DNA of 32,000 bases from Acaryochloris marina S15 (GCF_018336915.1 NZ_CP064923.1:3270001-3302000); one strand, 5' to 3'. Counted from the first letter of the stretch, positions 10,419 through 28,185 are shown. A program made the numbers and translations. Notes: a model not told the origin generated them from the letters alone.

Positions 10419-10486
10419 GGATCTGTCTCCCTTCAGTCATGAAACGAGATCAAGACAAAAACTCTAAGACCTGTTTGGGGACAGAT

Positions 10487-10780
10487 TTAGTCCAGCAAAT
10501 GACGGATGGCTTTAACTGAAGCCCCTAGCTCATCATTCAATGGTTCACCTTCGAGTTGCTCTAGTAATTTACGTAAGGTGTTTTTCTCCTGAAGAGAAAG
10601 CACAGGAAGCATTCCCCGACCAATTTGCTCAATGAACTCAGACCGAGAAAGCCCCATTTTCTTGGCTAGGCTATCTAATCCTTGGACTCCAGTTTCTGTC
10701 AGAGACAGGTTCACTTGGCCTTTGACCTCATCATAGAGTTCGGGTTGTCCCCGAACTTTTTTACGCCCTTTTTCAGGCAT
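10487..10780 (-). CDS. Ribbon-helix-helix (CopG/Arc-like) putative transcriptional regulator upstream of cas12k
   Basis: 97 aa from the ATG at 10780 (the ORF opens at a TTG at 10783). VNLSLTETGVQGLDSLAKKMGLSRSEFIEQIGRG fits a beta-strand/helix/helix RHH pattern. It is on the same strand as cas12k, 68 nt upstream. Confidence 0.6.
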   Translation of the reverse strand: MPEKGRKKVRGQPELYDEVKGQVNLSLTETGVQGLDSLAKKMGLSRSEFIEQIGRGMLPVLSLQEKNTLRKLLEQLEGEPLNDELGASVKAIRHLLD

Positions 10781-10815
10781 CAACCTCTAATCCTTATACT
10801 ATGGATTTATTTAGA

Positions 10816-10864
10816 GGCTATATAGGCTCTAACTGTTTTAAGATTGTAGGTAGTGGCTATATAG
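10816..10864. promoter_or_regulatory. Two GGCTATATAG boxes in the divergent intergenic region (candidate operator/promoter)
   Basis: An identical 10-mer containing the palindrome CTATATAG occurs at 10816-10825 and 10855-10864. These sit 36-84 nt upstream of the RHH gene start. Confidence 0.3.
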
Positions 10865-11056
10865 TCTCTACGTCAGAGTCAGTCAGGGAGTTGCTTGGTA
10901 AGTTGGCTGCCTGACTGGCTTGTGTTCTTATCAGCTTAAACTGCGCCTGTCTCTCACCTGAATTTCTTGGAAAGTTTTCAGATCTGTTTTTCAAGGGTGT
11001 ATGAGGAATGAGACTGCGGGTAAGGATGCGTCTCAAGTTCATAACGTTTTCAAGTA

Positions 11057-11554
11057 GTGCTCCAGGGGGACATCATCAAATCATCAACAGAGAGATTGCC
11101 GTTGCGACCCGCTCTTCTAGAGGCAATCACGATTCTTCAAAGTCATGGAGGGCGATTAACGGCACCTGAACTGCAAGCAGAGATGAGGATTGGCCTTTCT
11201 ACGGCCTATACCTATCTCAACCAACTCTTCAGCGAAGATTTCGTCGAACGAGTCAAAATAGAAACTGCGATGGGGACTTCTAAGCAGTTTCTCTACATTA
11301 TGAAGTCCGCTAACTGTGAGGGTCTTGATTTACCTAAGAATCAAAAAAAAACACCCAATGTCCTTCAGAATGGTTGTCCTGACAGTGAAGCGCATTCTGA
11401 GGACCCTATAGAGGAAGTCTTGGAAATTTTAAGTTCTCTTTCGAAGAAAGTTAGAACTCTAGAGAGACGGCTCGCCGCACTGGAACAAGAGAAGCACAAA
11501 AGCTATCCACTTCTTTCAGCTTTGAAGCAAGATATTGAAATGAGCGATGTATAG
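11057..11554 (+). CDS. Hypothetical winged-helix-like DNA-binding protein with C-terminal coiled coil
   Basis: 165-aa ORF with a GTG start, divergent from the RHH gene. LTAPELQAEMRIGLSTAYTYLNQLFSEDFVERV resembles a wHTH recognition region. The C-terminus is heptad-like (LERRLAALEQEK). Confidence 0.45.
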   Translation: MLQGDIIKSSTERLPLRPALLEAITILQSHGGRLTAPELQAEMRIGLSTAYTYLNQLFSEDFVERVKIETAMGTSKQFLYIMKSANCEGLDLPKNQKKTPNVLQNGCPDSEAHSEDPIEEVLEILSSLSKKVRTLERRLAALEQEKHKSYPLLSALKQDIEMSDV

Positions 11555-12073
11555 ATAAACTGCTCATTTGACATATCATCAAGAGCTATATGTATTCGGA
11601 ATTAAGGCACACAAGGCTTGTTCTAAGTTATGTAAATGCAGTTCAGTTAGACTACACGACGTTCTGTCTAACATGAAACTCTACTCCAATGGTTCTTTGA
11701 CTGGTGTAAAGCTTGTAGTGCAGCAAACTCACTAGGTAGTTCTATCACCACTCAATAGTTGTTAAAACCACCTGTGCTTTGAAGTTAGAGACGTATTTTC
11801 GCCATTTGTAAAGATATAGATTTCCATAATTCGGTACAAAACTATTTCGCTCCCTGTCCAAATTCAAGGACTCACTTCACAAAAGTCTTCAAGGGAATTT
11901 TTTCCGATGGTTGGTTTTATACAGCATAGACGTCAAGCGTAATATCTTAAGAATCAAGAAATTTTGAGCTAAAAAATCGGTTGTTAGGGAATATTTAAAC
12001 CGCTTACTACATTTGATTAACTAGTTCATTCGATTTCTCTTCCACTAAGGACATATTAGGAAAAGACCAAGAA

Positions 12074-15000
12074 ATGCTAAAGACAGTCAAAGATGCATGC
12101 ACCCTTCATCCAACGACTCTCGATTATCAGGTGGCAAGAGGTGTGGATAATCTCTCAGAAATTCTTGACGCTGAAGATTCAGGCAAGGCATTTTTTGAGA
12201 AAAGCCATATAACTCGAGGAATGGAAGAGCTTCTCAGGGAAGGGCTTTTGAGAATATCTGGTGAAAATGAGCAGGCATTGTTTGAACTTTCACAATCAAT
12301 GGGGGGTGGCAAAACCCATCTTATGTGTTCACTGGGCCTGTTAGCGAAGTATCCTTGTCTCAGAGCTGAGATTCTACCAACAGACGTTATAAATCGACTG
12401 GAAAATACTCCAGCGCGGGTAGCTGTATTTGAGGGGCGGAATAAACCGAAACACTATCTTTGGGGCGAAATTGCCAAGCAGCTTGGACCCGATGCTGAAG
12501 CGGTCATGCTGCCATTCTGGAAAAATGGCCCCCAGGCACCGGGTAAGGAGCATTGGAAGAAGATTATTGGTGATCAGCCAACGCTAATTTTATTTGATGA
12601 GTTACCGCCCTATTTTCTAGGGGCTCGCACTGTGGCCGTGGGGCAGGGCTCAATGGTGGATGTGCTGACGGAGGCCCTATCTAACCTGTTTGCGGCTGCC
12701 CTGGAACTGCCGCGTTGCTGTGTGGTGCTGGCTAATTTGTCTGATAGCTATCACGATCAGGTCAAGGAAGTACGCAAGCTAGTGGCCGATGTGCAGCGAG
12801 AAGCGTCTCGGCAGGCTAAAAAGATTACTCCGGTTTCCCTGGAAGGCAGCGAAATCTATTCAATTTTGCGAAAGCGGTTATTTGCTGAGCTGCCATCAGA
12901 TGAGGACATTGACGAGGTAGCTGAAGCCTACGCGGAGCAGATCAAACTGGCGGAGGACAGTGGTTACTTAACCGCTCGCAGTCTAGAGCAGGTGGCTGAT
13001 GAAGTGCGGGCGACGTATCCATTCCACCCATCGTTTAAGCATTTGGTGGCTTTATTTAAGGATAATCCTGACTTTCGGGAGACCCGTGGATTATTGCAGT
13101 TTGCGGCACGGGTGATTCGATCAGTGTGGCAACGTAAGCAGAATGATGTTTTTCTGATTGGTACCCAGCACCTGGATCTGAATGACAGTCAAGTGATGAA
13201 TGAGGTGACTGATATTAACCGGGCTTTGCGGCCTGCGATCGCACAGGATATTGCTGACAGTGGCAATGCCCATGCAGAGGAAATTGACGCTAACCTGAAC
13301 AGCGATGCTGCCTCTCAAGTGGCTTGTATGCTGCTTTCTGCCTCGCTTTCCCTGGCAGTGAAGGGACATATGGGCCTGCGTCGGGAAGAGGTGATCGAAT
13401 ATCTGGCGGCACCGAATCGAAAAGCCGAGGAATTTGCCCAGGCATTTAAGCAACTGAAGAAAACGGCCTGGTATCTCCATGCGGAAGGAGAACTTTTCTA
13501 CTTCAAAGATACGGAGAACCTGACCAAACGCATTCAGCGGGAGGCCCAGGGGTTACCCAAGGCAAAGGTAGAAAAAGCCCTTCGGACACGATTAGAAGGG
13601 GAACTAGAAGCTCAATCTAAGAAGGCATACCAGGAAGTGCTGATAATGCCGGAAATTAATGAGATTCGTCTGGGCAGTCATCGTATTTTGGTGGTTGTGC
13701 CCCCAGACAACAGTGTGCCACCTGAAGATATTCATCGGTTTTACGGGTCTGTTGCAGAAAAGAATAATCTGTTGGTACTGTCGGGGAATGACACCCATAT
13801 GGCCAGCCGTGTGGAAGAGTCACTGCGAGAGCTTTACGCTATCGAGAAGATTGCCAAAAATCTTAAACATAGTGATTCTCTTTATGAGCAAGCTCAAGAT
13901 TCTAAGGAAGAAGCTGAAGGGGCTCTTTTACAAGCGTTGCAGGGTACCTATAACAGACTCTTTTACCCATCTGAAGATGAACTACAGCAGGCCACCATCG
14001 AGAATGGTCTCAAATTTGGGCAGACCAGTGATGACAGTGTGGAAACCCAAATTGAAGCCATGCTGGCCAGCATGCGCTGTGACAACAAGCTGGCGACTGA
14101 TGCAGAACAAGACTCGCTGCCCTATTTTGCGATGGCAGAAGAAGAACTATGGCCCCAAAACGATCGCCGTACCCCCTGGCGTGATGTACTGATGCGGGCA
14201 AAGAGCAATCCCGCCTGGCCCTGGTTACCAGGATTAAAGGGCTTAGACCAGCTTAAGGTCAAAGCATTGTCCCAGGGGCGTTGGCGTGAGGGTAACGATG
14301 GCTGGATCGAAAAAGGACCATTCCCTAAGGAAAAGACTGCTGTCAATATCGTCAGCCCAACATTAGATATGCAGACTGGAGAAACGGTGCTTACGCTCAC
14401 CCCACGTCATGCGGGTCCGAGCCCCAACGTGCATTACAGTACATCTCCTAACGTTAGTGAAGCTGATCACGTCGTAAGGGATTTAGATACCTTTCGAACC
14501 AAGGATTCGACATTATATTTCCTAGCGGTCGATAGCACAGGGAAATATTCCATCGGTGAACCTAAACGATGGGTAGCCAAGCTTAAGATTCAGCATCAGG
14601 TTCACAATCGTCCGGTGCATCGTGAAGTAGAGCTAGCAGTCACACCTAATGCACAACTGCGCTACACCATCGATGCCACTAACCCCCGTGAAGGCAAAGT
14701 CTACGATGGCCCGTTTCAGATCTCGGATGATCAAATTTTGCTACAGGTGTACGCCAGCGCAGGCGAAGCGACGGCAACTGAAACCTTCAACATCTCTCAG
14801 AAAGGAATAGAGCGACCACCAATAAAAGATGACATGCCCGCAAAGCTAGTGCGTACCAAACCTCGGTTCGACACCACCAAAGCAGTTTTTGATGTCATTG
14901 CACAATTTAAGGACCGCCAGGGCGTTATCTTCCATGGTGTTACGTTGAATATTGGTGAAAATGAGCAGGCGGTGCAGGTGCGGTTTAATGATCGCCCTGT

Positions 15001-15175
15001 TACACCCGACATCTTAGAAAAATTAATTAAGGCCCTGCGCGAAAGTCTTAACGAGCCAGATGCTCTGGTACAGTTGACTATCCGGGATGGGGCAGCTTTT
15101 GATACTGGCTTTGACCTCAAGGCTTTTGCTGAGCTGGCGGGTATTGAGCTAACCCCAAACTCAGTGGAGCAGTAA
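12074..15175 (+). CDS. DUF499 (COG1483-like) P-loop ATPase of a defence-associated operon
   Basis: 1033 aa. It has the N-terminal pattern ...FFEKSHITRGMEELL...LSQSMGGGKTHLM (Walker A) and LILFDELPPY (Walker B-like), typical of DUF499 proteins. Confidence 0.8.
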   Translation: MLKTVKDACTLHPTTLDYQVARGVDNLSEILDAEDSGKAFFEKSHITRGMEELLREGLLRISGENEQALFELSQSMGGGKTHLMCSLGLLAKYPCLRAEILPTDVINRLENTPARVAVFEGRNKPKHYLWGEIAKQLGPDAEAVMLPFWKNGPQAPGKEHWKKIIGDQPTLILFDELPPYFLGARTVAVGQGSMVDVLTEALSNLFAAALELPRCCVVLANLSDSYHDQVKEVRKLVADVQREASRQAKKITPVSLEGSEIYSILRKRLFAELPSDEDIDEVAEAYAEQIKLAEDSGYLTARSLEQVADEVRATYPFHPSFKHLVALFKDNPDFRETRGLLQFAARVIRSVWQRKQNDVFLIGTQHLDLNDSQVMNEVTDINRALRPAIAQDIADSGNAHAEEIDANLNSDAASQVACMLLSASLSLAVKGHMGLRREEVIEYLAAPNRKAEEFAQAFKQLKKTAWYLHAEGELFYFKDTENLTKRIQREAQGLPKAKVEKALRTRLEGELEAQSKKAYQEVLIMPEINEIRLGSHRILVVVPPDNSVPPEDIHRFYGSVAEKNNLLVLSGNDTHMASRVEESLRELYAIEKIAKNLKHSDSLYEQAQDSKEEAEGALLQALQGTYNRLFYPSEDELQQATIENGLKFGQTSDDSVETQIEAMLASMRCDNKLATDAEQDSLPYFAMAEEELWPQNDRRTPWRDVLMRAKSNPAWPWLPGLKGLDQLKVKALSQGRWREGNDGWIEKGPFPKEKTAVNIVSPTLDMQTGETVLTLTPRHAGPSPNVHYSTSPNVSEADHVVRDLDTFRTKDSTLYFLAVDSTGKYSIGEPKRWVAKLKIQHQVHNRPVHREVELAVTPNAQLRYTIDATNPREGKVYDGPFQISDDQILLQVYASAGEATATETFNISQKGIERPPIKDDMPAKLVRTKPRFDTTKAVFDVIAQFKDRQGVIFHGVTLNIGENEQAVQVRFNDRPVTPDILEKLIKALRESLNEPDALVQLTIRDGAAFDTGFDLKAFAELAGIELTPNSVEQ

Positions 15176-15176
15176 A

Positions 15177-15830
15177 ATGAGTCTAGTGCAAACGTACTTA
15201 GCCCCCATGGCCAAAGAGACTAAAAAGACACGCGCAAAGACACGTTCAAAGGCCAGTAAACCTGCCCATGCCACCCAGGGCTTTGGGGTGCCGATCACGG
15301 CAGCGCCCCACCATTTTGTGGTGATTATTCCTCGGGGGACCAAGCAGCCGGTGCAAATTGTGGAAGACCTGGGGATGCACACCCTGGGTGATGAAAGTGA
15401 GCTGCTGGATCGAGTGGAGCTGCCCCGTGGGATTTGGACGGAAATTGCTAACCCAGTAAAGCGGATGTTTAATGAGCGTCTGAAAGCGCATCAGCTAAAG
15501 CCGGGTCAGTGGAAGGCAGGGGAAAATCGGGTGGACCGATTGCTGGGTAAAGAGTTATGTGTGCTGGCCTGGGCCATTGAGGATCTAGAAGAGGAGAAGA
15601 TTGGGACGGCGCTGCGGAATTGGTTGGCATTACGGCCAGAGGAGCGCTGGTGGTTGTTTGGGATGACGGCGACGACTGTAGGTGCCCCTGAGGATAAGGG
15701 GCGAGGGTGGCGAATGGCGCTGAAATATGCCCTGGGGTATCCCCCCCAGCCAACGCTGAGAGCCCCTAGAAAAGGTGATAAGACGGACGCTGAGGACATC
15801 TACGAAACATTGCCACTATTTCAGGGTTAA
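15177..15830 (+). CDS. DUF3780-like protein
   Basis: 217 aa, with its start 1 nt after the DUF499 stop. FGVP...HHFVV...RLLGKELCVLAWAIE...PEERWWLFGMT...GWRMALKYAL matches my recollection of the DUF3780 family that accompanies DUF499/DUF1156. Confidence 0.7.
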   Translation: MSLVQTYLAPMAKETKKTRAKTRSKASKPAHATQGFGVPITAAPHHFVVIIPRGTKQPVQIVEDLGMHTLGDESELLDRVELPRGIWTEIANPVKRMFNERLKAHQLKPGQWKAGENRVDRLLGKELCVLAWAIEDLEEEKIGTALRNWLALRPEERWWLFGMTATTVGAPEDKGRGWRMALKYALGYPPQPTLRAPRKGDKTDAEDIYETLPLFQG

Positions 15831-15956
15831 ACCTTGTCCACGTCCAGAACTGGAGTTTTTCCGTAGAGGAAACTATATGTTTCATTCAACTTAGACGTGG
15901 TTTAACTGCAGATTCTAAGCTCAAGAAAATGGAGAAACATCAAAGCTCACAAAACG

Positions 15957-16157
15957 GTGGAACCAATGGAAAATGCCAATTCTTTAAATATGTTGGAACG
16001 TGCTCCAGACAAGGTTAGTGGTGCATGGGTCTTTAAGGGCACTCGTGTTCCAGTTGCTGCCCTGTTTGAGAATCTCAAAGATGGGGCTTCTATTGATCAG
16101 TTTTTGGAATGGTTTCCAGGGGTTAAGCGTGAGCAAATAGAGACGCTATTGGAATAA
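15957..16157 (+). CDS. DUF433-like small protein
   Basis: 66 aa. VSGAWVFKGTRVPVAALFENLKDGASIDQFLEWFPGV fits the DUF433 homeodomain-like pattern. Confidence 0.6.
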   Translation: MEPMENANSLNMLERAPDKVSGAWVFKGTRVPVAALFENLKDGASIDQFLEWFPGVKREQIETLLE

Positions 16158-16238
16158 TCCTCAAACTTTAGAAATGCCACCGTTGATTCCAAAAAATTGC
16201 AGATTCCAAAATTAGAGCAAGCCCGTTGGAGACCCCTG

Positions 16239-16556
16239 ATGAACTATTTAGCGACAGACTACAAGTATATTCAGCTTGATGAAAACCAAGTTCCGGTAAT
16301 TGAAGGCAGCACCATGAAGGTGGTGGAGCTTATTACCTCGCATCTTACCTATGGCTGGAGTCCAGAAGAACTCCACTTTCAGTATTCTCACATCAGTCTG
16401 GGCAAAATTTACTCAGCCCTTGCTTACTATTGGGATCATAAAGCGGCGCTCGAAAGCGATATGAAACAGCGTCTCGAAAAAGTAAAAGCCCTACAGCAGG
16501 AAGCTCCTCCGTCTCGCATTGTCCAAAAACTAAAGGAGCGGGGTGTGATCTCTTGA
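16239..16556 (+). CDS. DUF433-like putative antitoxin
   Basis: The ORF opens at a TTG at 16197, and ATG 16239 is the more likely start. VPVIEGSTMKVVELITSHLTYGWSPEELHFQYSHISLGKIYSALAYY fits DUF433. The stop overlaps the next gene's start. Confidence 0.6.
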   Translation: MNYLATDYKYIQLDENQVPVIEGSTMKVVELITSHLTYGWSPEELHFQYSHISLGKIYSALAYYWDHKAALESDMKQRLEKVKALQQEAPPSRIVQKLKERGVIS

Positions 16557-16900
16557 GCGTAGCTCTCTACATGGATGAAAACGTACCTCGGCAAATTGCC
16601 GTGGGCTTACGACTCCGCGATATTGATGTCCTCACCGTGCAAGAAGATGGAAGGGCCGGAATAGCGGACCCAGAGGTACTGGCCCGCGCCACCGAATTAC
16701 AAAGAGTCTTATTTTCTAGAGATGACGATCTATTAGCACTGGCCCATCATCGTCAAAAAGTGGGTATCGACTTCTCCGGGGTAGTGTACGCCCATCCTCA
16801 AAGTATTAACATCGGTGATTGCGTGAAGGACTTAGAGGTGATTGCCAAAGCCAGCACTTTAGAAGACACGCTGAACCAAGTTCAATATTTACCGCTTTAG
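16553..16900 (+). CDS. DUF5615 (PIN-like/Mut7-C-like) putative toxin
   Basis: 115 aa. LYMDENVPRQIAVGLRLRDIDVLTV...VLFSRDDD is the usual DUF5615 N-terminus. It is coupled to the upstream DUF433 gene. Confidence 0.65.
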   Translation: MSVALYMDENVPRQIAVGLRLRDIDVLTVQEDGRAGIADPEVLARATELQRVLFSRDDDLLALAHHRQKVGIDFSGVVYAHPQSINIGDCVKDLEVIAKASTLEDTLNQVQYLPL

Positions 16901-16920
16901 TTCCTCTCCTAGTTTTATAC

Positions 16921-17857
16921 ATGCCGACTCCGTCTTTGAAACGCTTATCGCTACAAGATGCCCCCTCACTGATTGAGCGGGTATTTCCAGCGCAGAAGAT
17001 TTCGGCGGAGGCGCAGAAGGAGCGTAAGGCGGGGGCAGGGCAAACGTTGACGGCACTGGGATCTTATTGGAAAGGTCGCAAGCCGTTGATTATGGTGCGG
17101 GCGATTGTGCTGGGATGCTTGCTGCCGGTGACGGATGATTTAGAAGCGGATCTGCGCATCTTTGAGAAGCTGATGGGCATTGATGATGCGGCTTTTGGCT
17201 GGCGAGAGCCGAAGCTAAGGGTGATTGATATTGCCCAACGGATAGCGTTGGAGAACCCTTGGGACTTTTTTGACTACACCAACAAGTTTTACGATGCGGA
17301 AGAGATCGAGGCGCTGCAGTTTCCGTTGGATGTGGAGCAGTACCCGAAGCTAAAGGTGCGATGGAAGCGGGGTTCAGACCTGCGGGACAAGTATCCTTTT
17401 TTTATGCAGGCGTTAGAAGGATTGTCTTTTGAGGAGAAGGTGGGCCTGTGTCGGCGACCGGAAGAGATTGATCCAGAGGTTCTTTATGGGCCGATTTGGC
17501 AGGATGTGAATAAGCACCTGGAACCGTTTGGCATTGAGGCACATTCCCATGAGTCGTTGGTGGAGCAGTTGGGGGTTTTGCGCTATGGGCATCGGCCCAA
17601 GGTGGGAGATACGTTTTGTGGGGGTGGGTCGATACCGTTTGAGGCGGCGCGGTTGGGGTGTGATGTGTATGCGTCGGATTTGAATCCGGTGGCCTGTATG
17701 TTGACCTGGGGAGCGTTGAATATTATTGGGGCGAGTCCAGAAAAGCGGAAAGAGATTGAGAAAGCTCAAAAAGAAGTAGCGGAAGCAGTAGATCGAGAGA
17801 TTACCGAGCTGGGGATTGAGCATAATGAGCGGGGGGATCGGGCGAAAGCGTTTTTGT
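16921..17857 (+). pseudogene. DUF1156 (COG1743-like) DNA methyltransferase, truncated after about 312 codons by an IS
   Basis: From ATG 16921 the sequence reads MPTPSLKRL...FPAQKISAEAQKERKAG...SYWKGRKPL (DUF1156 N-terminus). SAM motif I is GDTFCGGGSIPFEAARLGCDVYASDLNP. The reading frame runs into the IS inverted repeat at 17858, so the catalytic motif IV region is absent. Confidence 0.8.
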
Positions 17858-19289
17858 CAGCAATTGTAAATTCAATATTTCATGAGGTATCGGCTGCTAT
17901 TCGAGGCTCTGGATCATCCAACATAAACTGGAGCAAATGCTCCCAACTCTCAAAGAGCAAGTATTTGGTCAAAGTCTGAATATCGTGAAAAAAGCCTTGT
18001 CGGGTTCCCCGTTGCTTTCGCATGCGTTGATAAGTGGAGTCCACCAAGTGCAAGACGGTATGAAATAAGAATGCCAACAGGTTGAGTACCAATAGCACAG
18101 CAGCAAGGTTCTTCTGACCATGACCAAAATTATGTTCTAAGTGATAGCCCTTGGTTTTGAGGACATTGTGTCCTTCATTCTCCGCTTTCCATCGGGCACG
18201 TCCAGCACTGACAATCTCGGCCACACTTTGGTCATTGATGAAATGGTGAGTAATGAACGCGTTGTGATACATAGTCTTTCCATCAGCAGCACGAGTAACA
18301 GAGACTTCGCACCAGTTGACCATCACTGCTGGTAGCTCCTCACGCAGGGGGATGCGATTGTAATAGCGATACTGACAAATTTCATGATAGCGACCGTTCC
18401 AGCCCCGAGTCTCTAGATGCTCAACATCTCCAATACCTTCTAAATACTCTACCCATTCATATAGCTCTGGATGGGAGGAGGGCAAACAGACAAAAATGAA
18501 GTTCAACTCATCCTCTAAACAAGTCTCCACCATCGGTTGACGGCTATAGAGGTCATCGCCAAGAACCGTAATCTTGGCTCCGTCAAACCCTTGAGCATGC
18601 CCCTTGATCCACCGTTTGGCCGCAGCGGTTTCACTATCCTGTTTCTCCGCACCATCTTGAGGACGAATGAACTCTGGGGCCAGAGAAATGACATGTTCAA
18701 TTTCCGGACAAACGAGGACGGGCAACACGGCGGTGTGCGTATAGGTGACACTCCCATCCCGATGGGTTTTGGTAGAACACTGATCGCAACAAATCCGGTT
18801 TGAGGAAAAATACTCGCTGCCGTCTAGCCCTACCAACAGGTGTCCACCTAGAACCTTATATTGCTCTAGATAACCTCGTCGTAGGAGAACGCTATAAATT
18901 TGATAAAAAATGGGAAACAGAAGACGAAATGCGATCAAGTCCAAAACATTCTTGATTTGGTTGCTCGTGGGGAGTTCTGTTAACTCAAAGAGGGCTTGGG
19001 CGTTGTCACGACCATGACGACTATGAACATGGCGTTGGTACTCCAGAAACGAAGGACATTGCATAAAGAAGACAGCAAATGCGCCTAATACAATATCTTT
19101 GAGACTAAATTTGGTGCCATTACTGGGTTGACGTGGATCATCGAGGTGCTCAATGAGCTGATGTAGCCAGTGCAGTAAGAGAGGGAAATTTAGAACACCT
19201 TCATTCATCGTCTGGGGCTCTGCAAGTGTATGAATACATCCTCAACGACTACAACCTAGCTTGCCAAAATTTTGAATTTACAATTGCTG
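17858..19289 (-). mobile_element. Insertion sequence (IS4-superfamily/ISNCY-like, family tentative)
   Basis: The terminal inverted repeat CAGCAATTGTAAATTCAA lies at 17858-17875 and, reverse-complemented, at 19272-19289. It holds a single 442-aa transposase ORF. No direct repeat flanks it. Confidence 0.8.
17880..19208 (-). CDS. DDE transposase of the IS
   Basis: 442 aa. Candidate DDE residues lie in LLVGLDGSEYF, VLGDDLYS and RARWKAENEGHNVLK (an IS4-type Y-R-E-K-like signature). Confidence 0.85.
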   Translation of the reverse strand: MNEGVLNFPLLLHWLHQLIEHLDDPRQPSNGTKFSLKDIVLGAFAVFFMQCPSFLEYQRHVHSRHGRDNAQALFELTELPTSNQIKNVLDLIAFRLLFPIFYQIYSVLLRRGYLEQYKVLGGHLLVGLDGSEYFSSNRICCDQCSTKTHRDGSVTYTHTAVLPVLVCPEIEHVISLAPEFIRPQDGAEKQDSETAAAKRWIKGHAQGFDGAKITVLGDDLYSRQPMVETCLEDELNFIFVCLPSSHPELYEWVEYLEGIGDVEHLETRGWNGRYHEICQYRYYNRIPLREELPAVMVNWCEVSVTRAADGKTMYHNAFITHHFINDQSVAEIVSAGRARWKAENEGHNVLKTKGYHLEHNFGHGQKNLAAVLLVLNLLAFLFHTVLHLVDSTYQRMRKQRGTRQGFFHDIQTLTKYLLFESWEHLLQFMLDDPEPRIAADTS

Positions 19290-19624
19290 GTGATAAAGAC
19301 ATCTCGGGGACGACCTGGATCATGCATTTCCACATACAACACAGGCATCGGAATGCGGTACAGCCCTCCCTTCTGCTTGGAATAGTGAGCCCGATAGACC
19401 TGACTTGCCTTTGAAAGACCCACATCATCAGAGGTGTACACCACACCAGAGTGCAACACGGCTTTGCGCTCATTCAGCCAATCAAAATAGGCTTGTTCTC
19501 TAGGAGTTTGAATATAGGGATCAAATTCCTTGATTCGCTGGGCTTTCAGATCTAGCTCTGAAGGCTGTTCACCGAGATCAACCGATGTCAATTGAATTGG
19601 GACAGGTTCTACCATCGGGCTCAC
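19290..19624 (-). pseudogene. tnsC: tnsC remnant (first ~111 codons only)
   Basis: The GTG start overlaps the tnsB stop (GTGA). FDWLNERK...VV...YRAHY...PVLYVEMHDPGRPRDVF is collinear with the N-terminus of V-K TnsC. The ORF continues into the IS end at 19289 and stops. The expected P-loop reads YTSDDVGLS. Confidence 0.75.
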
Positions 19625-21420
19625 CAGCTTTCACTCAGAAACTCATCCCAATTCTCTATCACAGAAACCTGCTGTGATTCTGCAGCAACGTCATGATCGG
19701 AAAAGGGTTGTTGATCTGGGGGATCCTGGACCACTCGCTTCCCATCCTGAGAATCCATAACATTTCCCTTGATTTCAGCGATTTGGGAGTCTTGCAGGGT
19801 CTTTTCCTCTAGCTTATCCTGGGCTTTCCACCGACACTTTCTCTGAGATTTCTCTTTCCGTTTCTGCTCTGAAAACTGCTGCAGATCCAGCCGCTCACTT
19901 AGCAAGGCCACATTATCTATCTTTCGCTCTTGTTGATGCATCTTGCGCTTGATAAGACGCCATTCTTTCAGGGAAATACGAGTTTTCTCCAAATCTCTGG
20001 CATGGGCCAAGCCTATATACTCAGATAGCTCAGACTCCTGTGAATAGGAGTAAACCAACACGGTAGAAATATCTCTCGGGTCATACCGGATTTGAATATA
20101 TTTGTGTGGCAGATTTTTTAGGGCCTTCACCTGATACTTTAAGCACTCAAAATTAAACGACTCATGCTTCTCAACTTTCCGCTTCTTGGTTTTCAACAAG
20201 CAAACATCAAGTTTTCGTTCATCGATGATCGGCAGATCACCCAATAGCGAAGCTTGCCAACGCTCTCGTCTCAGGGTATCTCTGACTTTGGGATATTGAT
20301 GGAGATTGTAATGCTGGGAAAAATAGCGGACCATCAGCTGCTCAAATTCTTCCAAGGTCACACAGGCATTTTTTTCAGCCTCTACAGGGCGAGTTTGAAC
20401 ATTGGAACCCTTATAGCCCAGTAAATGAGATAGCAATTCTGTATTGTTTTTTCCAAACACTGATTCCACGACTCCCCCAGCTTGGGGATATGCGCGCCGC
20501 CTGAGCTTGATACCGAGATGAGAAGCAACCTTCTTCAAATGCAGAGACTTAAACTCTTTGGCTCGGTCTGTAAATAGATAATCTGGAATCCCACGTTCAA
20601 TCCAAGGTTGTTCGAGCTTGTACTCAGGTCCATAGTGCTTGGGAAGCATCGCGTGACGCAAGGCTAGCCCTACCTCAAAGGCTCCAGGTGCTTCAAACCC
20701 TACGTAGTAACCCATCAGACAACCAGAGTAGTGATCGACAATGATCGTTAAGAAGGGACAACCAATAATCTCTCCTTTATCATCTACCAGCAGAATATCG
20801 GCTTTGGTATGGTCTGCTTGCCAAATCTGGTTGCTATAAGTGACGGGTATATCCCCATCCGTCGTACGAGCAACTTTATTTTTTCCTTGACCTGGGTGCC
20901 GCTGGGTTTCCCGAGCTTTCTCAATGTAGGGGGCTAAAACTTTGTAAACGGTGACATGAGACGGATATTCGCCTTGTTTGAGACCTAAATTTAGCTCTGC
21001 ATGGGCTTTGACGAGGTTAAAGACTTGATTGCGATTGATCCGCAAGCTATTCTTTTGACCCCGCAGATAGGTTTGGACGATAAATTGATGCCACTCTTTG
21101 GATATTCTGAATTTACCTTTATCCGCTCTGACCTCTACAGCTAAGCCATCCCAGCCCTTATTTCTGACCCGTTTTAGCGTGCGAATAATTGTGGTTCGAT
21201 GAACCCTTAAGATCTGGGCTGCTTCTCTAATTTTCTGAGTCTTCAGTCCTTCCGGTGCTCGAAGAATCTCTGAAAGCAGGCGGATTTTCAGATTGGAGGA
21301 CTCTGCACAAGATTCCAAGACCTGGGGAAGCAGAGAACTATCACGTAAGCTATCGACATCAACAGATTCTTCACTCTCTGCCAATAACTGTGCATCTTTT
21401 GCAGTATTTGCAAATTCCAT
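19621..21420 (-). CDS. tnsB: TnsB, Mu/Tn7-family DDE transposase
   Basis: 599 aa from ATG 21420 (the ORF opens at a TTG at 21432). It has N-terminal HTH-like regions. The catalytic core is WQADHTKADILLVD (D), YLFTDRAKEFKS (D) and GGVVESVFG (E). It lies next to the transposon end. Confidence 0.9.
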   Translation of the reverse strand: MEFANTAKDAQLLAESEESVDVDSLRDSSLLPQVLESCAESSNLKIRLLSEILRAPEGLKTQKIREAAQILRVHRTTIIRTLKRVRNKGWDGLAVEVRADKGKFRISKEWHQFIVQTYLRGQKNSLRINRNQVFNLVKAHAELNLGLKQGEYPSHVTVYKVLAPYIEKARETQRHPGQGKNKVARTTDGDIPVTYSNQIWQADHTKADILLVDDKGEIIGCPFLTIIVDHYSGCLMGYYVGFEAPGAFEVGLALRHAMLPKHYGPEYKLEQPWIERGIPDYLFTDRAKEFKSLHLKKVASHLGIKLRRRAYPQAGGVVESVFGKNNTELLSHLLGYKGSNVQTRPVEAEKNACVTLEEFEQLMVRYFSQHYNLHQYPKVRDTLRRERWQASLLGDLPIIDERKLDVCLLKTKKRKVEKHESFNFECLKYQVKALKNLPHKYIQIRYDPRDISTVLVYSYSQESELSEYIGLAHARDLEKTRISLKEWRLIKRKMHQQERKIDNVALLSERLDLQQFSEQKRKEKSQRKCRWKAQDKLEEKTLQDSQIAEIKGNVMDSQDGKRVVQDPPDQQPFSDHDVAAESQQVSVIENWDEFLSESW

Positions 21421-21456
21421 AGGACTTAGCAAAACCTAACCAACACACCGACAAAG

Positions 21457-21638
21457 GTGCATGTAATTCTTTAAAAGAATACCCCCACTATACAGAGGTG
21501 GTGCACTTAAATATTTAATTATGGAGAAAAGTTCTTTATTCGAAAAAGGTTGTATAAGATAGATACAGTAACCAGCTATAGACTCTTCGAAGAGTGCACT
21601 AATTCTTTAAATCAGTGCATTTAATTATTTAATGGACA
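21457..21638. repeat. tnsB-proximal transposon end with four TnsB-site-like repeats
   Basis: GTGCA(N)TAATTCTTTAAA-type motifs, in inverse orientation to those at 7462-7586, lie at 21457-21476, 21501-21520, 21594-21611 and 21614-21638 (terminal, ends AATGGACA). Confidence 0.75.
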
Positions 21639-21695
21639 AAATCTATAGTTCGATTAAGGAGTCAGAGTTGGATGCTATCTTAATATTCACGTTCT

Positions 21696-21767
21696 GCGGA
21701 TGTAGTTCAGTGGTAGAACGTCAGCTTCCCAAGCTGAATGTCGTCGGTTCGAGTCCGATCATCCGCT
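21696..21767 (+). tRNA. tRNA-Gly (anticodon CCC)
   Basis: The cloverleaf folds by hand: acceptor GCGGATG/CATCCGC, D-stem GTTC/GAAC, anticodon stem TCAGC/GCTGA with loop TTCCCAA, T-stem GTCGG/CCGAT with loop TTCGAGT, and discriminator T. No CCA is encoded. Confidence 0.93.
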
Positions 21768-21788: not shown

Positions 21789-22232
21789 CTACCCTACAAA
21801 AGGGTTGATGAGTTTTATCGTACACCCTTCAAAATCGCTTATGTTTCGAGTTGCAATGGCCAAAGGCCGGTCGTAGAACATCGCACTACCGTATTGTTTT
21901 GCGATCGCAGCAATCATCATATCGAAGGCATCCACATGTAACCCCTGTTGCAAACAGGTATTACACAACTCACCGTAAGCCAAAGCTGCTTTAGGCTCAA
22001 AATTCAATAGTCGATCTCTAAAGCCTGTATCGATAAATATTTCAAATCTACGATGTAAATCTTCGCGCCTTCTGCCTTCAGGCAAGCGACCCAATCCATA
22101 ATAAATTTCTGCCAAGGTAATCACCGTAATCGCCAGATCCTTTTGATCTTGATCACGCATCCAGTCCAACACCTGTGAAGACGGAGCTGGCTTCATAAGT
22201 TCTGACACCACATTCGTATCGAGAATGATCAT
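21789..22232 (-). CDS. vapC: VapC/FitB-like PIN-domain toxin
   Basis: 147 aa. It has MIILDTNVVSE..., a conserved acidic pattern, and a ...ATRNISDF C-terminus. The start overlaps the antitoxin stop (ATGA). Confidence 0.85.
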   Translation of the reverse strand: MIILDTNVVSELMKPAPSSQVLDWMRDQDQKDLAITVITLAEIYYGLGRLPEGRRREDLHRRFEIFIDTGFRDRLLNFEPKAALAYGELCNTCLQQGLHVDAFDMMIAAIAKQYGSAMFYDRPLAIATRNISDFEGCTIKLINPFVG

Positions 22233-22462
22233 TCAAGCTCTCGCGGCAGGACAGCAGGATGGGCCTCTAGCTCAACGCCATTGTCTTGGCCAAATAATTG
22301 CAGTGCTAAATCAGCAGTATTAGGCTCGGATACAGTCTGAGCTAATGCCTGTCGCAGGATGACACGAGCTTCTTCCTCCATGGAGCGATTATTCTGGGCT
22401 GCCTGTACACGCAGCTTCGTTTTGACATCTTCATCTAAATTGCGGATAGTGATGCTGGCCAT
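22229..22462 (-). CDS. vapB: VapB/FitA-like RHH antitoxin
   Basis: MASITIRNLDEDVKTKLRVQAAQNNRSMEEEARVILRQAL is a classic FitA/Arc-type antitoxin N-terminus. The ORF opens at a GTG at 22480, and ATG 22462 is preferred. Confidence 0.75.
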   Translation of the reverse strand: MASITIRNLDEDVKTKLRVQAAQNNRSMEEEARVILRQALAQTVSEPNTADLALQLFGQDNGVELEAHPAVLPRELE

Positions 22463-22690
22463 ACAGATGACTCCTGACACTTGATATCATTTTCATCAAT
22501 GATTGCAATGCCATCAAAAATAAGATGCTAATACTGGCATTTATATTAGAACCCAGCTCAAAGCTTGAGATCATCAGTCATAGCAATTATCAAAAACAGA
22601 AATCTCTGTTTATGGGGCAGGTTTGGGGTAAACAAGAAAATCACTCGTCAAAACCCATACAGGGTAAAGGTTTTATTTCAGATTCTCAAA

Positions 22691-22725
22691 CTGAATATCA
22701 TCGGTTCAAGTCCGATCATCCGCTT
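22691..22725 (+). pseudogene. tRNA-Gly 3'-half fragment (att-like direct repeat)
   Basis: 32/35 identity to 21734-21768 (variable loop, T-arm, acceptor 3' strand and one following base). All three differences are G to A. Weaker similarity extends back to about 22676. No 5' acceptor partner exists upstream. Confidence 0.8.
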
Positions 22726-25700
22726 ATTGGTTATTGTCGTTGTTCGCTTCCCAGGAACTACTGGCGGCTTTCAGCATATTCAATACGAGCAGGGCAAACT
22801 TGCGGCCCGATTCTTCATTATCTAAAACGTCTAGGGATAGTTTTTCATGATCAGTCATGGCATCTAATACCGTATCCACCACCTTCTGGGGAAACAGGCC
22901 ATGCATCACCTGTTCTGGCGTATGGGTCTTAACCTGGGCCATCACATCTTCCTGACGACGGATGCGCTTGGTAATGGTATTGAGAAACTGGACCTGGTCT
23001 GCATCACTAATTTCAGCACCAAACAAGTCATTGAGGGACTGAATGATTTCTGAGAGCTTCTTTTTCTCGGGGTCATGGGCTTTGCCAGTACCAATCGCAC
23101 TGCCTGGCTGCAAAGGATATTCACCTTGATTTTCTGCGAGTCGGAGCTGTTGTTCCTTACGCTTAGTGAGACGGTAGTGGGTTAAAGAAAGTTCAGAAAC
23201 GTCTATCTGTTCTCGATCTAAACGATCGCGTCGCAGTAGGGGGTAGAGGTGCTTGGTATAGACGCATAGTTGCTCTAATTCCTGATCTTCGTAATCGATA
23301 ATCTGGGAGAGAAATTCATACAAACGCCCAAAGCTCTGGAGGTTCTTTTTGAACAGGTCGAGTTGGTCAATCTCTTCTCCCGCAGCTTTTAAGGTTGACT
23401 CAGCTTGTGTTAGGGCTGCAGTGTTGCTAGTACGTTTTTGCGCCAAGGCTTGTCGGCGGTTGGCGTCAGCCTCTTGATAGCGTTGCTTATAGCGATTGAC
23501 GGCGGGTTGGCAATGGTAAGCCAGCTTGGCATTGGCAGCTTTGGGGTCAAAGAAGGCCAGGGCAAACGCTTCCACTTCACTCCCGTGATAAATGCCTTCT
23601 TCATCTAGGGTATTTTGCAGGTCGTAGAGGAGCTGCGGGTCCGAGACATCTGCGAGTTCTGCCTTGTTGTAGTAAGGCAAAAAGGCTTCCAGAATATCCT
23701 GAGGGTCGTTAAAGAAGTCGAGGATAAAGGTGGCTTTGCCAGGGAAGAGGCGGTTGAGGCGAGAGAGGGTTTGTACGCAATCTACGCCGTGGAGTTTTTT
23801 GTCCACGTACATGGCGCAGAGCTTGGGCTGGTCGAAGCCCGTTTGGAATTTGTTGGCCACAATCATGACATTATATTCAGCCGTATCAAAGACCTGCCTG
23901 ATATCGCGCCCCTTGAGATTGGGGTTAAGGAGAGTACTGGTTTCGCGTACCTCTTCCGGGATAGCGTCATCCGGGGGCACCTTGCCAGAAAACGCCACCA
24001 GGGGATGCACGTTGGTGTAGCCCTGATCTTGGACATAGGTTTTAAGGGCGAGGTGATAGCAGACTGCTTCTTGGCGACTAGTGGTGACCACCATGGCCTT
24101 AGCCTGACCATTGAGCAGATGGGTGACATGCTCGCGAAAGTGCTCAACCATAACCTCCACTTTTTGGCTGATGTTATGGGGGTGCAGACGGACCCAGCGG
24201 GCCAGCTTGGTGCGGGCCTGTTTAGAATCCACCTCTCCTTGCTCAGCATGGGGATGGGCAATTTTCCAGGCGGTGGCGTAAGTGGTGTAGTTGAGCAGCA
24301 CATCGAGGATAAAGCCTTCTTCAATGGCCTGCCGCATGGAGTAAAGATGAAAGGGTTCTGGCTTATTGTCCACGCTGGGAGGCTGATGGGGGTTGGGTGG
24401 ACGGCCAAAGAGTTCTAGGGTTTTAGCTTTGGGTGTAGCGGTAAAGGCATAGTAGCTGATGTACTGATTGGGTCCCCGCGCCTGTACCGCAGCATCCATT
24501 AAGTCTTCGGCACTCAGTCCTTCGGTATCAGGATGGTCACTCCCCAGAATGGCTTTCAGCTTGCTAGCAGCCGATCCGGTTTGGGAGGAATGGGCTTCGT
24601 CAGCAATCACGGCATAGCGACCGCTGGCGAGGTCAGGATATTTATCCAGGGCATCAAATAGGGCGGGAAAGGTTTGAATCGTGACGATAATAATGCGGGT
24701 TTTGCTGGATAGGGCCTCGGCCAGTTGCTCTGACTTGCTTTGGCTGGTGCCCTCGCGGGTAATGGGAACCACAACGCCCTGGGCATGCTCGAACTGGTAG
24801 ATGGTGTCCTGGAGTTGGCTATCCAGAACGGTGCGATCGGTAACGACGATGACGGAGCTAAATAGTTTTTGACCGCCGTCGTCATAGAGAGAAGCCAGCT
24901 GGTGGGCGGTCCAGGCAATGGAGTTGGATTTCCCGGACCCAGCACTATGCTGAATCAGGTATCGTTGGCCTGCCCCTTCACGGCGAGTAGTATCTATCAG
25001 CTGGTTGACCACCTGCCATTGGTGATAGCGAGGAAAAATCAGTTTCTCTTTCGGTTTAACGGAACCGTCAAAATCTTCTTCCTTGGGCTTTTGCAGATGC
25101 AAGAACCGACCCAACACCTTTAGCCAAGCATCAGGCTGAAATAGCTGTTCCCATAGGTACGCCGTGGCGTAGGTGTTTTCGGCCTTGGGAGCTGGGTTGC
25201 CTGCACCGCCATCCTTCGTGCCCTGGTTAAAGGGCAAGAAAAAGGTGTCTTTGCCTGCCAGTTGGGTGGTCATGGCGACTTCTTGCTGGCTAACGGCAAA
25301 ATGCACCAGGGCACCACGCTTAAAGGCGAGTAAGGGTTCTGCTGTGCGGGTGAGGGGGTCTTTGACGGGGCGATCAAACCGATACTGGCGTTTGGCGTTG
25401 TCGATGGATTGTTTAAACTCGCTTTTGAGTTCTAATGTGGCGGTGGGGATGCCGTTGACGAATAGCACTAGGTCGAGGCGAGGGTTATAGTCACCGGAGC
25501 GGGCATGGGGCGAGTAGGATACTTCTGGCACCACCCGCAGGCGATTGGCTTGGTAACGAGCCTGGGTATCGGGGTTCATGCCGTGGTCGGGCTGGAAGCT
25601 GCACAGCTCAATTTTGATGCCGGGAATTTTATAGCCATGGCGCAGTAAGTCTAGGGAGCCGTTTTGTTCTAAAGTCCGGACGGTTTTTTGAATTAGGACG

Positions 25701-25897
25701 CCTGCGGGGTCGGTGGGGTTATTCTTGCAGAGTTTTTGCCAACGGTCGGGCCAGGCGGTTTGGAAGTAGGCCAGCAGGTCTTCGGTATATAGGGCAGTAG
25801 TGGGGTTGTAGTTTGCAGACGTGCCGACGAGCCAGCCTTGGGCTTGCAGGGCATTGATGATATCGGTTTGGAAGGCGGCTTCTTTGCTGTCGGCCAT
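22724..25897 (-). CDS. hsdR: Type I restriction enzyme, R subunit
   Basis: 1057 aa. It has the N-terminal nuclease region, an SF2 helicase motif I (SAGSGKSNS), a DEAH box (VIADEAHSSQ), and later motifs (TATP, QTGFD). Confidence 0.93.
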   Translation of the reverse strand: MADSKEAAFQTDIINALQAQGWLVGTSANYNPTTALYTEDLLAYFQTAWPDRWQKLCKNNPTDPAGVLIQKTVRTLEQNGSLDLLRHGYKIPGIKIELCSFQPDHGMNPDTQARYQANRLRVVPEVSYSPHARSGDYNPRLDLVLFVNGIPTATLELKSEFKQSIDNAKRQYRFDRPVKDPLTRTAEPLLAFKRGALVHFAVSQQEVAMTTQLAGKDTFFLPFNQGTKDGGAGNPAPKAENTYATAYLWEQLFQPDAWLKVLGRFLHLQKPKEEDFDGSVKPKEKLIFPRYHQWQVVNQLIDTTRREGAGQRYLIQHSAGSGKSNSIAWTAHQLASLYDDGGQKLFSSVIVVTDRTVLDSQLQDTIYQFEHAQGVVVPITREGTSQSKSEQLAEALSSKTRIIIVTIQTFPALFDALDKYPDLASGRYAVIADEAHSSQTGSAASKLKAILGSDHPDTEGLSAEDLMDAAVQARGPNQYISYYAFTATPKAKTLELFGRPPNPHQPPSVDNKPEPFHLYSMRQAIEEGFILDVLLNYTTYATAWKIAHPHAEQGEVDSKQARTKLARWVRLHPHNISQKVEVMVEHFREHVTHLLNGQAKAMVVTTSRQEAVCYHLALKTYVQDQGYTNVHPLVAFSGKVPPDDAIPEEVRETSTLLNPNLKGRDIRQVFDTAEYNVMIVANKFQTGFDQPKLCAMYVDKKLHGVDCVQTLSRLNRLFPGKATFILDFFNDPQDILEAFLPYYNKAELADVSDPQLLYDLQNTLDEEGIYHGSEVEAFALAFFDPKAANAKLAYHCQPAVNRYKQRYQEADANRRQALAQKRTSNTAALTQAESTLKAAGEEIDQLDLFKKNLQSFGRLYEFLSQIIDYEDQELEQLCVYTKHLYPLLRRDRLDREQIDVSELSLTHYRLTKRKEQQLRLAENQGEYPLQPGSAIGTGKAHDPEKKKLSEIIQSLNDLFGAEISDADQVQFLNTITKRIRRQEDVMAQVKTHTPEQVMHGLFPQKVVDTVLDAMTDHEKLSLDVLDNEESGRKFALLVLNMLKAASSSWEANNDNNQ

Positions 25898-25952
25898 AGG
25901 GTTTGCCGGGTAGGGGAAATATGCAAATTTAGAGATTGAGTTGCTATGTCGG

Positions 25953-26378
25953 TTAAATCAGTAGATTTTGAAAGGGATGAGTATTTTTCCGTCGATAGGT
26001 GTTGAAGTCTCGCTGATCGACGGAGAGAATACGCCCGTGCCCCAGGTGTTCAGCCAGAATCACCAAGGACGCATCGGCTAGATCCATGGGCAGATTCCGA
26101 TATTGATTCATCAGATTCAGTATTTGTGTGCAGTGTGTAGGTGTCAAATCGAATACCTGGATAGCACCAGCCGAGACTTTCTTGAGTAAAGCAGCGGGGG
26201 CATCGATACCGACCCTTTGCTGCAAGAGGTAGCAAGTTTCTATGATCACAGTGATCACACACCAGGTTGTGATGAATCCTTCTGGCTGGAATTCAGGAAA
26301 GCGAGCTATGGCTTGTTGGTGAAATGTATCACGTTTATTTGCGAGTGCTAACCAGAAGCCAGAGTCAATGATGACCAT
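25953..26378 (-). CDS. PIN-domain toxin (VapC-like)
   Basis: 141 aa. It has MVIIDSGFWLAL..., ...DLADASLVILAE..., and ILSVDQRDF. Confidence 0.8.
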   Translation of the reverse strand: MVIIDSGFWLALANKRDTFHQQAIARFPEFQPEGFITTWCVITVIIETCYLLQQRVGIDAPAALLKKVSAGAIQVFDLTPTHCTQILNLMNQYRNLPMDLADASLVILAEHLGHGRILSVDQRDFNTYRRKNTHPFQNLLI

Positions 26379-26637
26379 ATTTTTTCTCTAGCCCCTCTGC
26401 CAGATAGGCTTTGTAATTGACCGATAGATCTTCTTCGGCACTGATACAGCCAATAAGGTCCGACCAGTCTGTATAGTCTGGGGTTGGGACTGTTGGGATT
26501 GAGGACGACTGAGGCGTCTGGGTGGCTTGAGAGGGTTGGCTATCTTTTTTGAGGAGCTGGACAAACTGATAGACCTGATTTAGTGCCTCTTGGGGCAGGA
26601 TTTGGAGGTCTTGCTGGATTTGCTCAAGGGATGCCAT
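26365..26637 (-). CDS. Putative cognate antitoxin
   Basis: The ORF overlaps the PIN gene start by 14 nt. Likely start is ATG 26637 (MASLEQIQQDLQILPQEALNQVYQFVQLL), which is DUF2281-like. The upstream part of the ORF lies in a conserved non-coding repeat. Confidence 0.5.
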   Translation of the reverse strand: MASLEQIQQDLQILPQEALNQVYQFVQLLKKDSQPSQATQTPQSSSIPTVPTPDYTDWSDLIGCISAEEDLSVNYKAYLAEGLEKKYGHH

Positions 26638-26669
26638 TGCGAGAATTGCCGATTGGGTTGGTGAGCGAT

Positions 26670-26709
26670 TTGCTTGCATTTTAGCAATTGGGTTGGTGAT
26701 CTACTCCAT
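26670..26709. repeat. 40-nt conserved cassette-upstream module, copy 1
   Basis: TTGCTTGCATTTTAGCAATTGGGTTGGTGATCTACTCCAT is 38/40 identical to 27451-27490. It lies 33 nt upstream of the antitoxin ATG. Confidence 0.75.
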
Positions 26710-26782
26710 ACCTATCGAATTCACGGTTAGGCATCCTTCTCATCTCCTGCAGCATTACTGGTTGTTTAGCCTTTTGTGCAGA

Positions 26783-27423: not shown

Positions 27424-27450
27424 GGATGAAGGGACTAGGGCGAGGCGAGA

Positions 27451-27490
27451 TTGCTTGCATTCTAGCAATTGGGTTGGTGCTCTACTCCAT
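27451..27490. repeat. 40-nt conserved cassette-upstream module, copy 2
   Basis: TTGCTTGCATTCTAGCAATTGGGTTGGTGCTCTACTCCAT lies 28 nt upstream of the antitoxin ATG. A 16-nt core (TCTAGCAATTGGcTGG) recurs at 28185-28200. Confidence 0.75.
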
Positions 27491-27974: not shown

Positions 27975-28006
27975 CTGGGGGACAATGCAGTGTTAACCAT
28001 GCAGAT

Positions 28007-28174: not shown

Positions 28175-28185
28175 GGTTCTATTGT

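Follow-up and report, generated by a model that had tools for sequence, protein, structure and literature searches.

A type V-K transposon of Acaryochloris marina S15 probably disabled by a recent insertion sequence-associated internal deletion

The 32-kb stretch of A. marina DNA analysed here (the window) contains an insertion sequence (IS) with the beginning of a different gene on each side: a DUF1156 methylase gene on the left and tnsC on the right. Both genes are incomplete and converge on the IS, the orientation described in an earlier reading of this DNA made from the sequence alone (the sequence-only reading). How did one IS come to separate two truncated genes, what became of their missing parts, and what does this mean for the type V-K transposon in which they lie? 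The features at the junction are:

16921-17857, plus strand: 5′ third (312 codons) of a DUF1156 N6-methylase gene, recognised by NCBIfam, PADLOC and homology to contig L021; cut by the IS
17858-19289, minus strand: 1432-bp IS of an ISNCY-annotated group, with a weak IS4-like DDE motif and without target duplication
19290-19624, minus strand: 5′ part of tnsC, a stub of 109 codons (ATG at 19615) or 112 codons (GTG at 19624), reading 10 codons into the IS

The left breakpoint was placed by comparison with the DUF1156 homologue in L021. The homology (90% DNA identity) ends exactly at 17857, while L021 reads on past this point (ATTGTTTGGAGACGCG); in an uninterrupted gene of the window, CGTTTTTGT would run on into sequence like ATTGTTTGGAGACG. 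With the ATG at 16921 as the start, the breakpoint falls at codon 312, as the sequence-only reading had estimated, in a gene whose full length is about 1000 codons. The truncated ORF matched the NCBIfam DUF1156_antiphage profile at positions 1-271 of 960 only, and aligned with a 1017-aa plasmid reference at residues 19-331 only. Nothing similar to residues 332-1017 of that reference was found in the six frames of the 32-kb window by tblastn. An independent short-read contig (L016) contains the junction between DUF1156 and the IS as well.

The right breakpoint was equally sharp. Homology to the intact tnsC of four relatives ends exactly at 19290 (DNA identities of 97% for L019, 89% for L018, 90% for L020 and 70% for L017), in agreement with the cut at about codon 112 proposed previously. 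All four relatives continue through a tnsC of 287-290 aa and a tniQ of 165-169 aa that directly follow tnsB; in L019, tnsC continues past the breakpoint with GCTGTTGGAGGGATTGGG. The stub matched the PADLOC TnsC V-K profile at positions 15-106 of 283, and an HMM built from three full-length relatives with an E value of 1e-68. No TniQ was detected in any of the six frames of the window (best E values of 0.31 with tblastn and 1.1 with an HMM), nor any TnsC sequence beyond the stub (tblastn and HMM, six frames). The claim that the element holds no TniQ-like ORF is thus upheld; neither tniQ nor the rest of tnsC lies within 7462-21638, the interval in which the sequence-only reading had suggested looking for them. 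The stub has an odd Walker A motif, and its origin by decay after inactivation was considered and rejected, since the motif is conserved in the full-length TnsC of intact relatives. Non-canonical Walker motifs in TnsC have already been noted for several V-K elements (PMC11406308).

Inspection of the IS confirmed its coordinates, its length and its 18-nt terminal inverted repeats as previously given, and showed that the repeat extends to 23 nt (arms at 17858-17880 and 19267-19289; 96% complementary, with one mismatch), the outer 18 nt being perfect. The sole gene between the inverted repeats encodes a 442-aa transposase (17880-19208, minus strand) with D..D..E-like blocks and an RW..EN....LK motif. 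The latter accounts for its single family match in NCBIfam, a weak one to IS4 (E 0.0033); searches of Pfam (up to E 10) and of the Protein Data Bank with the transposase, and a megablast search of plasmids, gave no match. Homologues of the transposase in cyanobacterial plasmids and Acaryochloris genomes are annotated as ISNCY family transposases. The IS belongs to a poorly classified cyanobacterial group.

The IS appears not to be single in its genome. A public short-read contig (L003; Logan SRR17348481) is exactly as long as the IS (1432 bp), matches 17858-19289 with 100% identity and extends past neither IS end; a stand-alone contig of this kind fits the behaviour of a multi-copy repeat in de Bruijn assembly. 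At least three near-identical copies appear to reside on the same 5,881,945-bp chromosome, since a transposase variant differing by one residue is recorded for A. marina, under two protein accessions (QUY42560.1 and QUY42703.1), on a contig equal in length to that of the window's own proteins. The sister copies differ by at most one residue in the transposase.

Re-examination of the IS boundaries gave 9-bp flanks of CGTTTTTGT on the left and GTGATAAAG on the right. There is therefore no target-site duplication, as the sequence-only reading had stated. The relevance of this was assessed by scanning genome contigs with the pattern of the IS ends, which yielded four related copies in other cyanobacterial genomes (L004, L005, L007 and L008; three full-length and one a 123-bp miniature). 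All four are flanked by perfect 9-bp target duplications. The missing duplication at the window IS is thus meaningful, an anomaly for its group. Together with the presence of at least three chromosomal copies, it strengthens the earlier proposal that a simple insertion is insufficient and that an IS-mediated deletion is likelier. A history in two unrelated steps, namely a plain IS insertion followed by an IS-independent deletion, would be compatible with the final structure taken alone, but that deletion would have had to end, to the base, at the IS terminus, a coincidence that events promoted by the IS itself do not need to assume. We consider such a history highly improbable.

The V-K transposon spans from 7462 (TGTACATTAAAG...) to 21638 (...ATTTAATGGACA), and homology to relatives starts exactly at the TGT. 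Its minus strand begins with tnsB and the tnsC stub; after the IS come the reversed cargo, genes for a helix-turn-helix (HTH) and a ribbon-helix-helix (RHH) protein, cas12k, four repeats and a 17-nt spacer. The features outside the cargo are as follows:

7389-7422, plus strand: partial copy (34 nt) of tRNA-Gly(CCC), identical to 21706-21739; ARAGORN calls no tRNA here
7453-7461, no strand assigned: left 9-bp direct repeat AAATCTATA, adjoining the transposon
7462-7617, no strand assigned: array-side transposon end, starting TGTACATTAAAGAATTAAATGCAC, an inverted match to the tnsB-side end
7618-7634, minus strand: homing (attachment-site) spacer GAACGTCAGCTTCCCAA, 17 nt, directly after the last repeat
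7635-7887, minus strand: CRISPR array of four identical 37-nt repeats (GTTGCAATGACTTTTGAGGGTTAGTAGGGGTTGAAAG) and three 35-nt spacers
8412-10418, minus strand: cas12k, 668 aa, full length (NCBIfam V_Cas12k, E 3.5e-147, positions 2-627 of 629)
10487-10783, minus strand: ribbon-helix-helix protein, candidate regulator, upstream of cas12k (Pfam RHH_1; module conserved in L018)
11057-11554, plus strand: 165-aa helix-turn-helix protein (weak HTH matches), divergent from the RHH/cas12k unit
19621-21420, minus strand: tnsB, 599 aa, intact; aligns with residues 37-530 of ShCAST TnsB (E 2.5e-109)
21578-21638, no strand assigned: tnsB-side transposon end; its reverse complement starts TGTCCATTAAATAATTAAATGCAC, and homology to L018 and L020 starts exactly here
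21639-21647, no strand assigned: right 9-bp direct repeat AAATCTATA, abutting the tnsB-side end
21696-21767, plus strand: functional tRNA-Gly(CCC), 57 bp outside the tnsB-side end

The retained parts are those of a V-K element. Among the features by which membership was judged is an array with 37-nt repeats and a 17-nt attachment-site spacer, whose protospacer has a GTN PAM and lies 60-66 bp from the transposon end. The homing spacer has a match in the partial tRNA copy as well as in the real tRNA-Gly, and the partial copy holds a GTA PAM (7394-7396) and the 17-nt protospacer (7397-7413), which begins 65 bp before the array-side end. This agrees with the natural V-K geometry (10.1101/2021.02.06.429022). 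The real tRNA-Gly at 21696 was set aside as the target, its protospacer pointing away from the element. Cas12k, TnsB, an array with a 17-nt spacer and inverted TGT ends are all present; a complete TnsC, TniQ and a 5-bp target-site duplication are not. Each end is bordered by the 9-bp direct repeat AAATCTATA, with differing adjacent 5-mers, while a 5-bp duplication is expected for V-K elements (PMC11406308). The array-side end is 97.8% identical over 45 nt to that of L018, the HTH gene shows 89% DNA identity to positions 17288-18151 of L018, and the Cas12k is at least 90% identical to that of intact relatives, including L018 and L019. In the region between cas12k and the array, where a tracrRNA is expected, a simple complementarity scan gave no stretch longer than 9 nt, and there was no Rfam match. 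The full Cas12k profile match, the four identical repeats and the 599-aa TnsB bear out the earlier statement that cas12k, the array and tnsB are intact.

The window element resembles ShCAST of Scytonema hofmanni (7m99, 7svw, 8rdu) in its Cas12k family profile, in a repeat that ends in GGTTGAAAG, in the GTN PAM and in an insertion 65 bp from the PAM. Its TnsB, in the aligned part, conserves three acidic residues that we take to be the DDE triad. In contrast to ShCAST, the window clade has a TnsC with neither the Walker A lysine nor the Walker B glutamate, the cargo is placed between tniQ and cas12k, and the flanking direct repeat is of 9 bp rather than 5 bp. A search for literature linking Acaryochloris with Cas12k found none.

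The cargo begins beyond the HTH gene and ends, at the IS, with the DUF1156 fragment. Its other genes are:

12074-15175, plus strand: DUF499 AAA+ ATPase (NCBIfam DUF499_antiphage, 1429 bits, full length; PADLOC agrees)
15177-15830, plus strand: standalone DUF3780 protein (Pfam, E 1.9e-68)
16197-16900, plus strand: toxin-antitoxin pair, DUF433 antitoxin-like and DUF5615/PIN-like, embedded in the cargo

DUF499, DUF3780 and DUF1156 together make up a type-2 BREX-related system. In systems of this type, an ATPase/methylase/helicase core is accompanied by a standalone DUF3780 and an HKD-helicase effector (PMC12839542). The window shares with them a DUF499 protein with FnIII-type domains, DUF3780 and DUF1156 in the canonical order, and differs in a methylase gene that breaks off after roughly a third and in the lack of the PLD/HKD-helicase effector; DUF499 and DUF3780 are thus present, a complete DUF1156 and the effector are not. 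Two plasmids with uninterrupted systems show the order DUF499, DUF3780, DUF1156 and a PLD-like effector of about 910 aa. A tblastn search with the Thiodictyon effector found no PLD-type effector in the 32-kb window (best E 0.031, in an unrelated gene). The same toxin-antitoxin pair was found upstream of DUF1156 in L021. After the event, the cargo defence system would be dead. Joint loss of the methylase and the nuclease effector may have been tolerated, while loss of the methylase alone might not have been.

The relatives indicate what stood in the place of the IS. Their architecture is tnsB-tnsC-tniQ, cargo, regulators, cas12k and array, with the rest of tnsC and tniQ where the window has its IS; in L018 and L019 alike, the cargo occupies the space between tniQ and the regulator/cas12k module. 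The ancestral order, from the tnsB side, would then have been tnsB, tnsC, tniQ, cargo, HTH, RHH, cas12k, array and homing spacer, with a cargo that would have read, on the opposite strand, DUF499, DUF3780, the toxin-antitoxin pair, DUF1156 and probably a PLD-type effector. ISs are known to generate adjacent deletions and to recombine with other copies of themselves. In one possible route, two directly repeated copies of the IS, one inserted in tnsC and the other in DUF1156, would have recombined; in another, a single copy would have made an adjacent deletion during transposition. Either would leave one IS between unrelated 9-mers. This is how textbook IS-mediated deletions look, with one IS between former non-neighbours and the target duplication lost. 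A recent IS-associated internal deletion in the V-K transposon is therefore the best explanation for the locus, and one that we hold with considerable confidence.

The lost segment would have taken some 690 codons of DUF1156 and the final 178 codons (62%) of tnsC, together with tniQ and probably the effector gene. The list in the sequence-only reading (the 3′ part of the methylase, tniQ and some 60% of tnsC) stands, but the loss appears to be larger than it implied and probably extends to the PLD-type effector. The expected position of the effector falls inside the missing interval. Its share of the loss would be about 2.7 kb and that of DUF1156 about 2.1 kb, with tniQ and tnsC each contributing 0.5 kb; the deletion is therefore probably near 6 kb, with a probable minimum of about 3 kb. 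Alignment with intact elements, which had been proposed as the way to size the deletion, did so for tnsC and tniQ; none of the relatives found combined this cargo with an uninterrupted structure, and unrelated plasmids therefore served to reconstruct the deleted interval and to estimate the cargo loss.

The missing DNA could also have moved rather than disappeared. An IS in tnsC might have recombined with a distant copy, producing an inversion or translocation after which the 3′ part of tnsC, tniQ and the 3′ part of DUF1156 would survive elsewhere. At least two further near-identical copies of the IS do appear to be present on the same chromosome, and an absent target duplication fits an inversion as well as a deletion. 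However, the two transposon ends lie 14 kb apart, are correctly inverted, have the same 9-mer outside and enclose one IS. An inversion with a copy outside the transposon would have separated these ends, and one inside it needs two copies, while the cargo passes into the conserved HTH/RHH/cas12k module at about 11550 with no IS in between. Further, the 90%-identity clusters of the TniQ of four relatives and of the relatives' TnsC contained no member from the 5.88-Mb contig except the stub, an observation of little weight given how narrow these clusters are. An inversion or translocation is unlikely. Deletion is preferred because the ends are intact and correctly oriented with a single IS between them, and the missing DNA would accordingly be gone.

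An assembly artefact would offer a different escape: two simple IS insertions, one in DUF1156 and one in tnsC, with DNA between them, collapsed into one. A 1.4-kb exact repeat does break short-read assemblies at its ends, and independent contig support was obtained for the left junction, that between DUF1156 and the IS, only. The predicted partial proteins spanning the junction between the IS and tnsC, searched for with guessed query sequences, had no record in the protein collection, and the exact TnsB protein of the window is unrecorded from short-read assemblies, while neighbouring proteins are recorded. Against a collapse, the records of the window proteins lie on one 5.88-Mb contig, which suggests an assembly well able to span repeats. 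In addition, the read sets and the chromosome of the strain yielded no protein within 90% identity of the relatives' TniQ or of the C-terminal part of their TnsC, a weak argument at that threshold. A concatenated query of the TnsC C-terminal part and TniQ gave no match in a search so insensitive that it missed the query's own TniQ. Overall, an artefact is very unlikely, and the internal deletion remains the preferred reading.

How long ago the deletion occurred was approached through the retained genes. The dN/dS of tnsB against L019 was 0.068 (28 synonymous and 7 non-synonymous differences), and that of the tnsC stub against this 97%-identical intact relative was 0.065. Changes in tnsB private to the window lineage, polarised with L018, were 17 synonymous and 5 non-synonymous. 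For Cas12k, 19 private amino-acid changes were counted in the window; three relatives, of which two come from contigs where tnsBCQ is intact, had 16, 14 and 6. The comparison of tnsB with an intact relative, suggested earlier as a test for ongoing selection, thus revealed no relaxed constraint, and Cas12k, assessed by its private changes, showed no excess. These values bear on recency, not on selection after the event, and on them the event looks recent. With no sign of relaxed selection, no new function needs to be invoked; the earlier question of whether the genes are retained for another purpose loses its force, as dN/dS values of about 0.07 and the lack of a Cas12k excess fit a recent event.

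With TnsC truncated and TniQ missing, the element would be unable to recruit TnsB to a target marked by Cas12k, and therefore should not be able to move on its own. Related V-K elements, 89-97% identical, occur in read sets that probably come from sister Acaryochloris strains. On the 5.88-Mb contig itself, the 90%-identity clusters of TnsC and TniQ gave no helper, although a more distant one may exist. That the element, by virtue of its intact ends, TnsB, Cas12k, array and homing spacer, can be mobilised in trans by the TnsC and TniQ of a relative, or that Cas12k and its guide are kept as an RNA-guided binder, for example one occupying or protecting the tRNA-Gly site, seems to us distinctly doubtful.

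That V-K elements are often found degraded is not new. Hsieh and Peters found a proximal tnsB-tnsC-tniQ operon for 152 of 282 cas12k genes and ascribed the rest to inactivation and degradation, not to new function (10.1101/2021.02.06.429022). As in their degraded elements, the window keeps cas12k, the array, a 17-nt tRNA-targeting spacer after GAAAG, a transposon end and the attachment site, and has lost transposition genes. It differs from them in that the causative IS is visible at the deletion junction, and in that the loss is partial (tnsB and the tnsC stub remain) and appears recent. What is described here is ordinary IS-associated decay in a known kind of element, and reveals no new kind of system. 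It provides a clean, datable case of the death of a V-K transposon, in which one IS event would have taken the target-selection genes and the defence effector together and left the RNA-guided module intact. The case offers a concrete mechanism for the numerous reported cas12k loci without tnsB-tnsC-tniQ, and a natural donor-only element that is usable for tests of trans-mobilisation between related transposons.

The transposon, a type V-K CRISPR-associated element, is positioned between a pseudo-tRNA on one side and its intact twin on the other:

window 7389-7422, array side of the transposon: partial tRNA-Gly(CCC) copy of 34 nt, containing the homing protospacer
window 21696-21767, 57 bp beyond the tnsB-side transposon end: functional tRNA-Gly

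The 34-nt copy has the same sequence as the middle of the real gene, while the 5′ and 3′ parts of the array-side copy outside this identity are strongly diverged. A perfect 9-bp direct repeat, AAATCTATA, adjoins both transposon ends (window 7453-7461 and 21639-21647). Tn7-like elements are expected to generate 5-bp duplications (PMC11406308); the 5-mers adjoining the two ends did not match when compared. In L017, a contig of a relative with an intact tnsC, positions 1-72 contained an apparent array-side transposon end followed by 5 bp (GACAA) and then a tnsB-side end, an arrangement that could represent two tandem elements or a joined-ends form.

Within the cargo, a toxin-antitoxin pair is embedded in the defence system related to type-2 BREX:

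window 16197-16900, between DUF3780 and DUF1156: DUF433/PIN-like toxin-antitoxin pair

A Thiodictyon plasmid system also has an embedded pair, of VapC type, at a different position. The DUF1156 methylase gene, cut by an IS in the window, was found interrupted in another read set as well (contig L021, 633-2587; 90% identity), about 33 codons beyond the window break point. The IS that breaks it there is not the one seen in the window: its transposase belongs to the IS5 family (DUF4096 and DDE_Tnp_1). The gene has been struck by ISs independently in the two cases. A 123-bp miniature derivative of the window's own IS, consisting of both ends only and having a 9-bp duplication, was present in contig L007 (2191-2313). 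Beyond the transposon lies a further defence-rich stretch (window 21789-30102), which includes:

FitA-like/VapC pair
HsdR, type I restriction subunit, 1057 aa
HsdS, specificity subunit
two PIN-domain proteins
DUF559 endonuclease-like protein

The TnsC proteins of this clade lack the Walker A lysine (FTSDDVGLAK vs GESRTGKT in ShCAST) and the Walker B glutamate (VNH or VDH vs IDE). The comparison took in the tnsC stub of the window (19290-19615) and L017 2073-2936, L018 7279-8151 and L019 1685-2548. Since the full-length genes of intact elements show the same departures, these are a clade trait; TnsC proteins with such non-canonical motifs are mentioned in the review literature (PMC11406308). 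Two other read sets contained TnsC remnants of 166-170 aa (L001 1401-1913 and L002 506-1006), 80-86% identical to the window stub. Both have the same premature stop (NFHIF*), and upstream of both there is no tnsB; a Peptidase_S24 gene lies next to each. This remnant looks like an older element that degraded separately.

The exact TnsB protein (window 19621-21420) is on record from the NCBI genome only, and not from the short-read assemblies that have identical Cas12k, DUF499, VapC and HsdR. One possibility is that a second, similar tnsB fragmented the assembly graph. When window 19290-21270 was compared with L019 30-2010, synonymous divergence was 0.08 in tnsB and 0.31 in the adjoining tnsC stub, a difference which suggests that related elements have recombined within the transposition operon.
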